Counted from the stretch's first letter, positions 13,503 through 16,327 are shown. The stretch is 32,000 bases of DNA from Bacteroidales bacterium (GCA_038244085.1 JBBRTX010000015.1:4997-36996), one strand, 5' to 3'. Notes: generated by a model from the sequence alone, not told the origin. Translations and numbers: made by a program.

Positions 13503-13799
13503 TTAACAACAGTTTCCGCCATCACTGCAATCGCAGGTTGGTTCGGTGCCGCGAAGCAATCCATTGATGATGCCGGCAGCGCAGCCAACGCCGGATTTTA
13601 CGGTTATAGCCCCGGGAGCGCAGTTCAGGGCACAGGCTCCACATTCCATGCACAGATCTTTGTTCCGGATCACCGCTTTCCTGTTTTCTATTTCGAAAAC
13701 ATGGTGTGGACAAACGATCAGACACATCCGGCATCCGTTGCATTTCTCTTCGTCAAGCCGGAGAGAGACCACATTCGATAAATAGGCAAATCCGCTCAT
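13503..13799 (-). CDS. hgcB: HgcB, 2x[4Fe-4S] ferredoxin of the mercury-methylation pair
   Basis: 98 aa with two CX2CX2CX3CP ferredoxin motifs (CNGCRMCLIVCP and CMECGACALNCAP). It has the HgcB-diagnostic CMECGA motif, a conserved Cys at residue 73 (GVGCAAG), and a C-terminal vicinal Cys pair (GGNCC). It starts 14 nt after the hgcA stop. Confidence 0.85.
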   Translation of the reverse strand: MSGFAYLSNVVSLRLDEEKCNGCRMCLIVCPHHVFEIENRKAVIRNKDLCMECGACALNCAPGAITVKSGVGCAAGIINGLLRGTEPTCDCSDGGNCC

Positions 13800-13813
13800 C
13801 GTATTGTTGAGTT

Positions 13814-14851
13814 TTATAAGGTGATAAATCGTGAAATGATCCAGCCAGCCAGGCCCAGTCCCGCCAGGATTATCTGGATGGGTAACCAGGCTTTCATCTC
13901 TTTCTGAACGCCCGAAAGAGAGGTAAACGTTGACGACCCTGTGAAATTCATGGCCATAAACGAGGAGAGTCCTCCGACGATCAGGAACCAGGCCATAATT
14001 TCAATGGGATTCGTCCCCATCATTCCGAAGAGATCCAGGATGACAGCGGTGAGAAGACCCAATAAAAGTCCCTTCACAGAGAATCGGCGGAAGCGAATCC
14101 ATGGCAGCAGGGCAGGCGTAAGGGCGCAGCCGGCCAGATAGCCTGAAAAGAGATTTACCACAGCCTTCCATCCTGTTTGGAATGCAGTGTCAATTGAATA
14201 TCCACTGGGAGATAACCCGGAAAGCAGGAAAAATATGGCCGGAACCAGCAGCATATAATATCTGCCGTAAAACAGATCGACAGGAATCAGCTTAAGCCTT
14301 TCCACCAAGGGGAAAGTTACCGTTCGCATTTCCTCTGTCGCCTTCATACCAGCCTCCCTGAAAGCTTTTATATCGGAAGCCCTGACTGGTCCGAAAATGA
14401 CAGAGAATCCAGTCATCCTTTTAACTTCATGAGCAGCAACACCGGTGGCACAGAGTTGCGGCAGAATGAGCTTCCGGTGATCCACTACCTGATCGAGATG
14501 ATGAATACGGATGCGCCGAACAACCTCTTTTGTGCTGAATATGCCTTTGCCAGCTGCGCACCATACATTGATCCCTTTGGTATTAATTACCAGGATCCAG
14601 GCATCAATTCCATCCAGCCCCTTTCGGAGATGGTCAAAACTCAGTTTGTAGTTTGCCGTAACATAGACCGATGAATTGCTGTCAGGATTGCCCGTTGCAT
14701 AGATTCCCGGTGTTATTTTGTATTTCATTCTTCCGATTGACCAGCGAACTTTCAATGTTTGCAGGTAATCAGACTTTGTCCATTTTGTAGCCACGATCGG
14801 AACCGAAAATGCCTTGGCATGCAGGTGACCGGTGATAAAAGTCGGGGTCAT
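13814..14851 (-). CDS. hgcA: HgcA, corrinoid-binding mercury methyltransferase (N-terminal corrinoid domain plus C-terminal 5-TM domain)
   Basis: The cap-helix signature NVWCAAGK is encoded at 14546-14569 (verified codon by codon: AAT GTA TGG TGC GCA GCT GGC AAA). Surrounding sequence is GRMKYKITPGIYATGNPDSNSSVYVTANYKLSFDHLRKGLDGIDAWILVINTKGINVWCAAGKGIFST. The C-terminal half has about five hydrophobic helices. Start taken at the Met at 14851, 1 nt after the acr3 stop; the track start at 14890 would overlap acr3. Confidence 0.9.
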   Translation of the reverse strand: MTPTFITGHLHAKAFSVPIVATKWTKSDYLQTLKVRWSIGRMKYKITPGIYATGNPDSNSSVYVTANYKLSFDHLRKGLDGIDAWILVINTKGINVWCAAGKGIFSTKEVVRRIRIHHLDQVVDHRKLILPQLCATGVAAHEVKRMTGFSVIFGPVRASDIKAFREAGMKATEEMRTVTFPLVERLKLIPVDLFYGRYYMLLVPAIFFLLSGLSPSGYSIDTAFQTGWKAVVNLFSGYLAGCALTPALLPWIRFRRFSVKGLLLGLLTAVILDLFGMMGTNPIEIMAWFLIVGGLSSFMAMNFTGSSTFTSLSGVQKEMKAWLPIQIILAGLGLAGWIISRFITL

Positions 14852-14852
14852 A

Positions 14853-15911
14853 TTAAGCGTAATATTTTTTCTTAATCCAAAAAGCCACATTCACCAATGA
14901 AAGCAAGACAGGGACTTCAACCAGCGGGCCAATCACTGCGGCGAATGCTTCTCCCGAATTTATACCAAATAGGGCTATTGCAACCGCTATGGCCAGTTCG
15001 AAATTATTGCTTGCAGCCGTAAATGACAGAGTAGCTGATTGTTCATACGTAGCGCCCGCTTTTTTGCTCACAAAGAATGAGACAAAGAACATAATCAAGA
15101 AGTATATGCTAAGAGGGATGGCTATCAGGATTACATCGGCAGGTAATTTTACAATGTATTCGCCCTTTAAAGAGAACATCACGATGATGGTGAACAAGAG
15201 TGCAATCAGGGTAAGAGGGCTGATCCGGGGAATGAATTTCGTATTGTACCAGTTTTTACTTTTTATCCTGATCAGGATAAACCGGGTAAGAAAGCCAGCA
15301 ATAAAAGGGATTCCAAGGTATATAAATACACTTTTGGCAATTTGCCCGATCGTAATGTTCTCAACAACCAGGTTAGTCGGAACACCAAACCATCCGGGTA
15401 ATATGGCGATGAACAGGTAAGCGTAAACTGAGAAAAGCAATACCTGAAAGATGGAATTGAATGCAACCAGTCCCGCACAATACTCCGTGTCACCCTTTGC
15501 CAGTTCATTCCAGACGATCACCATGGCAATGCAACGGGCAAGGCCAATCAGGATGATACCATACATATAAGGGAGGTTTGAATTATTTTCGCCCGGGAAT
15601 AATTTGAAAAAAGTGATGGCCAGGGCAAACATCAGAATCGGGCCGATGATCCAGTTTTGCACCATGGAAAGCCCGAGAATCCTATAATTGCGGAATACCC
15701 TGCCGAGTTCTTCATATTTCACTTTTGCCAGTGGCGGATACATCATCAGGATCAGGCCGATGGCGATGGGGATATTCGTGGTTCCGGAATTGAACTGGTT
15801 CCAGAAACCGACTACTGCGGGAAAAAGATAGCCGGAGAACACACCCATAAACATGGCAAGGAAAATCCAAAGCGTGAGGTAACGGTCGAGAAATTTAAGA
15901 CGGGTTTTCAT
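14853..15911 (-). CDS. acr3: ACR3-family arsenite efflux permease
   Basis: 352 aa and polytopic. N-terminus [13 protein letters not shown]. Conserved ACR3 motifs GLARCIAMV (essential Cys) and [12 protein letters not shown] (essential Glu). Confidence 0.9.
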
Positions 15912-15960
15912 GACTCAGGTCTTGGGTTCATTAAATCTTATGGATTAAATTATTAAAGGG

Positions 15961-16293
15961 TTAGCAGTTCAGGTTCGTTTCCATAGAAATTTCCGAAAGA
16001 AACTTAGCAAAGAGTGCATGGATCTGTTTTGCCCGTTGTTCGTCAATACAGTAATTTATGGTCAGCCCGTCAATCGTTCCCTTGATCAGCCCGGTTTTCC
16101 TGAGTTCCTGCAGATGCTGTGAAACCGTCGTCCGGCTTAATGGTATCTGATCTGAAATGTCGCCCGAAATACAGGTCTTCTGTTCGGCAAGGAATTTAAG
16201 AATTGCCAGTCTTGCAGGATGAGACAGCGCTTTTGCGATTTTAGCCATTTCCTGAAGATGGTTCTGAAAAACATTGCTCTTAGAGTATGTCAT
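15961..16293 (-). CDS. arsR: ArsR/SmtB-family metalloregulatory repressor
   Basis: Winged-HTH core LSHPARLAILKFLAEQKTCISGDISDQIPLSRTTVSQHLQELRKTGLI. Start taken at MTYSKSN (16293). The track start at 16326 would lie inside the candidate operator/promoter. Confidence 0.85.
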   Translation of the reverse strand: MTYSKSNVFQNHLQEMAKIAKALSHPARLAILKFLAEQKTCISGDISDQIPLSRTTVSQHLQELRKTGLIKGTIDGLTINYCIDEQRAKQIHALFAKFLSEISMETNLNC

Positions 16294-16305
16294 AATTGTA
16301 TATTT

Positions 16306-16327
16306 AATGTCGCAAACATACGACATT
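16306..16327 (-). promoter_or_regulatory. Candidate ArsR operator (7-8-7 perfect inverted repeat) enclosing a Bacteroidota -7 promoter box
   Basis: AATGTCG-CAAACATA-CGACATT at 16306-16327. On the coding (minus) strand the 8-bp spacer reads TATGTTTG, matching the Bacteroidota sigma-A -7 consensus TAnnTTTG. It lies 20 nt upstream of the proposed arsR ATG. Confidence 0.45.

Follow-up and report, generated by a model that had tools for sequence, protein, structure and literature searches.

The 32,000-nucleotide (nt) stretch of Bacteroidales bacterium DNA analysed here (GCA_038244085.1, JBBRTX010000015.1:4997-36996; hereafter the window) carries the mercury-methylation genes hgcA and hgcB behind an arsR regulator gene and the arsenite permease gene acr3. 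The four genes share one orientation, on the minus strand, so that in window coordinates they run from right to left. The first, arsR (15961..16293), encodes an ArsR/SmtB repressor of 110 amino acids (aa), its longest open reading frame (ORF) running from 16326, and is followed by acr3 (14853..15911), which encodes an ACR3-family arsenite efflux permease of 352 aa, by hgcA (13814..14851), which encodes the 345-aa corrinoid protein of the mercury-methylation pair, and by hgcB (13503..13799), which encodes its 98-aa 2x[4Fe-4S] ferredoxin partner. The stop codon of arsR is separated from the ATG of acr3 by 49 nt, the TAA of acr3 (14855..14853) from the ATG of hgcA (14851..14849) by a single nt, and the stop of hgcA from the ATG of hgcB by 14 nt. 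An initial annotation of this DNA had given the same gene order and gaps, and these proved exact when the sequence was re-read, but its strand did not hold, and its right edge at 16327 falls in the promoter and operator and not in coding sequence. Among the 123 related loci compared (43 genome loci and 80 metagenome loci of ArsR relatives included, cited below by L numbers), the exact order arsR-acr3-hgcA-hgcB was found only in the window and on a 7-kb twin contig (L044), for which a separate gene call yields an identical 345-aa HgcA product. As the initial annotation had said, no mer genes are present in the rest of the 32-kb window.

The identity of HgcA was determined with curated protein family models and a tree of the corrinoid domain. 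The protein scored 430.1 bits against NF040863 (HgcA_corrinoid), an equivalog-level NCBIfam model with a cut-off of 275, and 204.7 bits against NF043039 (HgcAB_like), the model of the fused paralogues, which is under the cut-off of 285. The cap helix NVWCAAGK, which includes the conserved Cys98, occupies residues 95-102 and is identical in 35 true HgcA loci, and five hydrophobic segments were located in the C-terminal region (residues 193-345) by a simple Kyte-Doolittle scan and not by a dedicated topology predictor. In the neighbour-joining tree, which was built from 43 related loci with no sequences of experimentally confirmed methylators among them, HgcA nests in a monophyletic Bacteroidota clade apart from the fused group, and its closest relatives are from Bacteroidales or Bacteroidota metagenome-assembled genomes (MAGs) at 59-71% identity. 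HgcB scored 123.1 bits against NF040864 (HgcB_ferredoxin; cut-off 99), which is likewise an equivalog-level model. Its cysteines are at positions 20, 23, 26, 30, 50, 53, 56, 60, 73, 89, 91, 97 and 98, and they form two CX2CX2CX3C motifs (20/23/26/30 and 50/53/56/60), with CMECGAC beginning at residue 50, a separate Cys73 and a C-terminal CC at 97 and 98. The features by which the initial annotation had recognised the two proteins, the cap helix and five membrane segments of HgcA and the CMECGAC, Cys73 and terminal CC of HgcB, are thus all present, and the model searches and phylogeny gave neither a placement in the paralogue clade nor a misaligned cap helix, so this is a genuine hgcA and not the fused paralogue. 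These sequence comparisons identify HgcA and HgcB as orthologues of the pair that methylates mercury.

Against solved structures, the only match to HgcA was the large subunit of the corrinoid iron-sulfur protein (CFeSP; AcsC/CfsA; PDB 2h9a, 4c1n and 4djd), with a homologous corrinoid-binding domain over HgcA residues 41-165 (E = 1.6e-10), to which the cap region aligns. CFeSP has a Thr in the cap region where HgcA has Cys98, and N-terminal domains in place of which HgcA has a membrane domain of five helices. The fused HgcAB-like proteins (NF043039; L037-L042) contain corrinoid and ferredoxin domains related to those of HgcA and HgcB, but they carry NVWCAA[G/K/T]G, whereas the window has NVWCAAGK and a separate hgcB gene. 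Two longer forms of HgcA were considered and discarded. A start at an upstream in-frame ATG, 14890, would overlap acr3 and is not matched in homologues; the independent call, too, is of 345 aa. An N-terminal Cys-Sec or Cys-Cys extension, as proposed for many HgcA proteins in the Haft preprint, was ruled out by a stop before the ORF, the lack of a Cys-TGA and many stops in the upstream frame within acr3.

The two genes ahead of hgcA are equally well defined as members of the ars group. Acr3 scored 441.4 bits against the equivalog TIGR00832 (cut-off 282.8), with residues 5-343 covering model positions 1-327, and is 80-86% identical to the acr3 products of the ars-hgc clusters L001 and L009. Mutagenesis of Acr3 has drawn attention to a conserved Cys in the RCIAMV helix and to a Glu near the C-terminus; here they correspond to Cys127 and to the Glu of PLVEVPVLL. 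ArsR scored 66.9 bits against the family-level model NF033788 (ArsR/SmtB; cut-off 55), and its HTH_5 winged-helix domain (PF01022) scored 44.8 bits (cut-off 22). The start used here, ATG 16293, agrees with the starts of 111-aa homologues. The 121-aa ORF beginning at 16326 was rejected because its additional N-terminus, MSYVCDI, is the operator palindrome described below read as protein, and because in L005, L007 and L016 this DNA motif is not part of an ORF and its distance from arsR varies. The artefact (window 16294-16326, minus strand) recurs in L008 and L001, and mimics protein conservation.

Promoters of Bacteroides and Flavobacterium conform to a consensus of TTTG at -33 and TAnnTTTG at -7. 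A sigma-70 scan returned seven sites where 6.0 were expected, which is chance level and uninformative for Bacteroidota, and the Bacteroidota -7 box was therefore searched for in its place. On the coding strand between 13400 and 16600 the TAnnTTTG pattern occurs once, as TATGTTTG (16320..16313, minus strand) 5' of arsR, and a predicted -33 element, TTTG (16341..16344, minus strand), is located 20 nt upstream of it. The predicted -7 box is at the centre of ATGTCGTATGTTTGCGACAT (16307..16326, minus strand), a 20-bp imperfect palindrome of 8-4-8 form in which seven of the eight arm positions are paired, and this palindrome is the predicted ArsR operator. Its core, CGTAnnTTTGCG, is found once in the window against an expectation of 0.06. 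The motif is also present once each in L001, L005, L007, L008, L009 and L016, in every case immediately 5' of the cluster's leading arsR, and none of the 43 genome loci has it anywhere else. Its arms vary between loci and are mostly complementary (AACG..CGTT, GTCG..CGAC and ATCG..CGAT; imperfect in L001 and L016), a behaviour which would be expected of a site bound by a dimer. A second palindrome, GACGTATTAnTACGTy, lies over the -33 region in four loci.

The spacer between arsR and acr3 has no stable RNA structure (fold of -3.7 kcal/mol, z = 0.08, no better than shuffled sequence), and no terminator-like sites were seen at the junctions. As there is a single -7 box, no structure in the spacer and no terminator at the junctions, the sequence supports one repressible promoter for arsR-acr3-hgcA-hgcB, and the placement of hgcAB inside a real ars operon, as originally proposed, is upheld by this promoter and its ArsR-type palindrome. 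It could be argued instead that hgcAB is transcribed from its own unrecognised promoter in the 3' part of acr3 and is free of arsenic control, given that the promoter rules of Bacteroidota are loose and that the sigma-70 scan places weak sites inside acr3, though at the chance frequency. Such a promoter is quite unlikely, as no TAnnTTTG is present on the coding strand from hgcB up to the arsR promoter, the 1-nt junction leaves no intergenic room, and the junctions upstream of hgcA are equally tight in the relatives (0-15 nt) whichever gene precedes it.

The ligand of the repressor was considered from its cysteines. C41 (after helix 2), C82 (in an NYC motif in the wing) and C110 (C-terminal) are common to seven cluster-associated ArsRs, and a metagenome scan with their alignment gave 80 further relatives with 45-73% identity. 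C41 and C82 are each present in 87/87 of these sequences, and C110 in all 40 where the alignment reaches the C-terminus. The As(III) site of the R773 ArsR is formed by Cys32/34/37, a CVC-x2-C triad in helix 3. C41 (KTC41ISGDIS) is at the position of R773 Cys32 and is the sole Cys in this stretch, so that one of the three canonical residues is present. A repressor that senses something other than arsenite, whether S-adenosylhomocysteine (SAH), another thiophilic metal or a reactive sulfur species, would be compatible with this absence of the canonical site, with the closest solved structures (BigR, YgaV, SqrR and CmtR, none of which shares the cysteine positions) and with the response of ArsR2 of strain ND132 to SAH-related treatments (Gionfriddo 2023). 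It is nevertheless judged unlikely: the three invariant cysteines would suit a three-sulfur As(III) site, the cysteine of BigR is out of register with C41, and this type of ArsR heads operons with arsC, arsM or acr3 in 33 of the 39 informative metagenome loci described below. Arsenite control is the parsimonious reading because ordinary ars operons that lack hgcAB have this regulator and operator.

The neighbourhood of hgcA was then compared between genomes. In each of the nine informative hgcA loci of Bacteroidota, ars-type genes adjoin hgcA in the same orientation, against clear ars linkage at 6 of 26 hgcA loci in other phyla (Fisher p = 7e-5, the loci not being independent of one another). 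The gene orders differ: arsR-arsC::arsM-(Cys-rich)-(DsbD-like)-hgcA-hgcB-acr3 in L001, arsR-(Cys-rich)-(DsbD-like)-hgcA-hgcB in L005, L007 and L008, arsC-rhodanese-hgcA-hgcB in L004, arsR-hgcA-hgcB in L006 and arsR-arsF-arsF-arsG-acr3-hgcA in L009. In the last of these acr3 is followed by hgcA as in the window, with 3 nt from the acr3 stop to an in-frame TTG start of hgcA, so the junction singled out by the initial annotation is not confined to this genome.

These comparisons bear on whether the linkage is of any consequence to the cell. In one view the ars operon is a unit often transferred and tolerant of insertion, in which hgcAB simply landed, and co-expression would be a by-product that plays no part in arsenic physiology. 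The low frequency of hgcAB in operons headed by this ArsR (5/39, in variable positions) agrees with such hitchhiking, as do the patchy occurrence of hgcA among Bacteroidales reported in a 2020 preprint and the suggestion that the arsenic link may explain horizontal transfer of the genes (Gionfriddo 2023). Retention of the linkage in 9/9 Bacteroidota loci despite rearrangement, always co-oriented and with tight junctions, argues however for selection on co-expression, and in the window no mobility genes are found within 9 kb of the cluster and no tRNA gene adjoins it, while its GC content (0.43-0.48) is the same as that of its flanks. Passive carriage is on this evidence rather unlikely.

Two other groups of genes were observed beside hgcAB in the relatives. 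A conserved gene pair directly precedes hgcA in six Bacteroidota genome loci, L001 (5002-5995), L002 (4602-5682), L005 (4976-5998), L007 (~5090-5997), L008 (4978-5994) and L016 (2118-3138), and also in L067. The first member encodes a protein of ~100 aa with an N-terminal Cys cluster (CGCEDGCCPP), one membrane helix and no Pfam or NCBIfam match, and the second a 233-aa DsbD_TM-like membrane protein which has a CxC in its first helix and scores far under the ArsG cut-off. The pair is found in none of 33 ars operons without hgcAB and is absent from the window, where acr3 is in that position; it may be an accessory module specific to hgcAB, possibly one that handles metals through thiols. Two relatives (L007, 7386-7982; L006, ~4876) have, downstream of hgcB, a gene for a 198-aa class-I methyltransferase that weakly resembles CpaM, the corrinoid protein-associated methyltransferase (25 bits against a cut-off of 180), and in the fused HgcAB-like loci L039, L041 and L042 a methyltransferase gene is directly upstream.

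Approached from the regulator, the picture is that of a general ars operon. The ArsR-relative metagenome loci include 39 that are informative, each extending 1.5 kb or more past arsR, and 33 of these have arsC, arsM or acr3, typically as arsR-arsC-(arsM)-acr3. HgcA was found in five of the 39, and in 7/80 of all ArsR-relative loci: directly after arsR in L065 and L103, as arsR-arsC-hgcA in L086, as arsR-arsC-hgcA-hgcB-acr3 in L094 and L097, and after arsR with intervening genes in L112 and L121. A 20-mer identical to ATGTCGTATGTTTGCGACAT heads ars operons without hgcAB in L049, L056, L063 and L066, and is also present 5' of arsR in L045, L076, L092 and L100, which have too little of the downstream operon for this to be judged. 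The ordinary Bacteroidota operon arsR-arsC-(arsM)-acr3 (L049, L056, L066, L072 and others) therefore shares with the window the three-Cys ArsR subfamily, the 20-bp operator, which is identical, and acr3 genes of one family (77-83% identity), and differs in that it has no hgcAB, while the window has neither arsC nor arsM. An ars cluster with acr3 has also been reported for Bacteroides vulgatus. Because the same operator and ArsR type head many operons without hgcAB, the switch in the window is the generic ars-operon switch of Bacteroidota, and hgcAB is an optional cassette placed in variable positions.

In L094 and L097, hgcAB is between arsC and acr3, which is the exact slot of arsM in the arsR-arsC-arsM-acr3 operons of L049, L056, L066 and L072. 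This position, together with the linkage across the Bacteroidota and the observation that wild-type Pseudodesulfovibrio mercurii ND132 is less sensitive to As(V) than its hgcAB knockout (Gionfriddo 2023), is what might be expected if HgcAB were a functional metalloid-detoxification module, in which the corrinoid protein methylates As(III) or a related metalloid as a complement or alternative to the S-adenosylmethionine-dependent ArsM, the permease of the operon exports the methylated product, and mercury methylation is a side reaction. Whether arsM and hgcAB exclude one another, which would be a hint of functional replacement, was also examined. The idea was rejected: the two occur together in L001, L016 and L112, and show no significant anti-correlation (3/15 against 10/22, p = 0.17). 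The literature search found no report of HgcAB methylating arsenic or biochemical evidence for it, and other native roles have been proposed for the pair, namely halomethane dehalogenation and antimicrobial production. The suggestion in the initial annotation that HgcAB acts on arsenic thus finds no support in the sequence, and a detoxification function of this kind is considered very unlikely.

The best-supported explanation, which is held with fairly good confidence, is that an arsenite pump and the mercury-methylation pair are co-expressed under the control of arsenite. Transcription would start at the single Bacteroidota-type promoter (-33 TTTG, -7 TATGTTTG), and this promoter would be blocked by an ArsR dimer on the 20-bp palindrome around the -7 box. 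From what is known of the family and from the genes that this ArsR type heads elsewhere, arsenite, and possibly antimonite, would bind to the three invariant cysteines and remove ArsR from the DNA. The derepressed transcript would then yield the Acr3 pump, with HgcA and HgcB following over the 1-nt and 14-nt junctions, which would allow coupled translation. Derepression of the operon by arsenite predicts an arsenic-inducible mercury-methylation capacity in this lineage, and the capacity to form methylmercury is probably switched on by arsenite. The initial annotation went further in raising the possibility that arsenic exposure drives methylmercury formation; this is not implied by co-regulation alone, because transcription of hgcA in ND132 did not predict the rate of methylation.

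Several points weigh against co-expression under arsenite as an account of this locus. The promoter and operator are pattern-based predictions. The promoters and terminators of Bacteroidota are poorly modelled, so a weak internal promoter is possible, and with the incomplete R773 site the ligand of ArsR is a predicted one. According to the 2020 preprint, no member of the Bacteroidales had a confirmed methylation phenotype, and no later report of one was found in the literature search. Finally, the level of the hgcA transcript was a poor predictor of methylation rate in ND132 (Gionfriddo 2023).

The surroundings of the operon were also inspected. Its 3' end is set solely by a convergent kinase gene, and past hgcB the RNA folds no more stably than shuffled sequence (z = -0.12). 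The kinase gene belongs to a signalling cluster on the plus strand (8317-13469) that is convergent with hgcB and encodes a dCache-PAS histidine kinase of 940 aa, a stand-alone receiver of 166 aa and a receiver-PAS-PAS-HisKA_3 kinase of 617 aa, the gene for which ends 33 nt from the hgcB stop; the twin contig L044 has these neighbours too. The arsR promoter is directly preceded by the gene of a 749-aa TPR protein (18806..16557), and divergent from that gene is an 844-aa ORF (18984-21518, plus strand) whose N-terminus resembles a signal peptide and which matched nothing in Pfam at E <= 1e-5. A glucan-utilisation cluster (21553-31056) encodes three alpha-amylase-family proteins, a CBM48 branching-enzyme-like protein, a protein with a cyclomaltodextrinase N-domain, an S51 peptidase, a GH77 4-alpha-glucanotransferase and a small protein that bears a type-IX secretion sorting tail. 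Such a cluster is in keeping with the fermentative, polysaccharide-degrading way of life described for hgcA-positive Bacteroidales. Together with the MAG relatives of HgcA, a type-IX secretion sorting tail, an S46 peptidase and a Bacteroidetes-type integrase encoded in the window place the host in the Bacteroidota.

The integrase is part of a remnant or edge of an integrative element (373-4161), 9 kb from the ars-hgc operon and with no obvious connection to it. It comprises a DUF5906 primase/helicase-like gene (373-1737), an HTH_17 excisionase-like gene (2198-2536) and the tyrosine integrase gene (2875-4161), has a GC content of 0.36-0.40 compared to 0.42-0.48 in the rest of the window, and has no adjoining tRNA gene. 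Recent horizontal acquisition of the ars-hgc cluster was considered and rejected, given the lack of a GC anomaly and of adjoining mobility genes or a tRNA, and the distance of 9 kb to this element.

The locus is relevant to how methylmercury production is predicted, which is from the presence of hgcAB, as both the control of these genes and the reason for their retention are open questions in the field. Among the putative methylators of lakes and thawing permafrost, Bacteroidota are abundant and transcriptionally active, and every informative Bacteroidota hgcA locus inspected sits in an ars operon. The observations concern a phylum in which methylation is predicted from genes, and would also matter for sites that are contaminated with both arsenic and mercury. 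The locus offers an inexpensive and well-defined test system: the predicted operator is 20 bp long, the small ArsR has three cysteines that are candidates for sensing, and arsenite is predicted to induce hgcAB. Since the general idea is already known, its value is as a sharper test. Were the detoxification function discussed above to be true, HgcAB would gain both a native function and an inducer.

The link between hgcAB and ars genes has been published. McDaniel 2020 shows, in its Fig. 6, hgcAB regions flanked by acr3, arsC, arsM and arsR, and describes the Bacteroidetes HgcAB as monophyletic; Fig. 4c of Peterson 2025 places arsR with acr3 or arsC beside expressed hgcA, and the lake metatranscriptome of that study has lower hgcA expression where arsR is present; and the same association is summarised in Zhang 2023. 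These MAG neighbourhoods are from several phyla, Bacteroidetes included, and in the available sections of the three papers proximity is described, with no promoter or operator and no link to the switch of ars operons without hgcAB. Gionfriddo 2023 lists an ArsR adjoining hgcAB for Bacteroidetes, including Paludibacter jiangxiensis. The locus is therefore a clean further example of the published link and not a discovery; this analysis adds a predicted promoter with its operator, a corrected start for arsR, the signature of three cysteines and the evidence for a movable cassette.

The nearest characterised system is arsR2-hgcA-hgcB of ND132 (Goni-Urriza 2020; Gionfriddo 2023), in which an ArsR/SmtB regulator is likewise upstream of, and co-transcribed with, hgcAB. 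Experiments in that strain demonstrated that ArsR2 regulates hgcAB and responds to arsenic and SAH (Gionfriddo 2023), and its cysteines after helix 2 and in the beta-wing (C47/C49 and C86/C88) are in the same places as C41 and C82 of the window ArsR. An arsenic-responsive hgcAB transcript has been shown in ND132. The two differ in content, as the ND132 hgc cluster has no ars structural gene and the window has an arsenite pump between arsR and hgcA, and in the regulator itself: the site of ArsR2 is built of four cysteines, and ND132 has other repressors for its ars operons, whereas the ArsR of the window is the generic ars-operon repressor.

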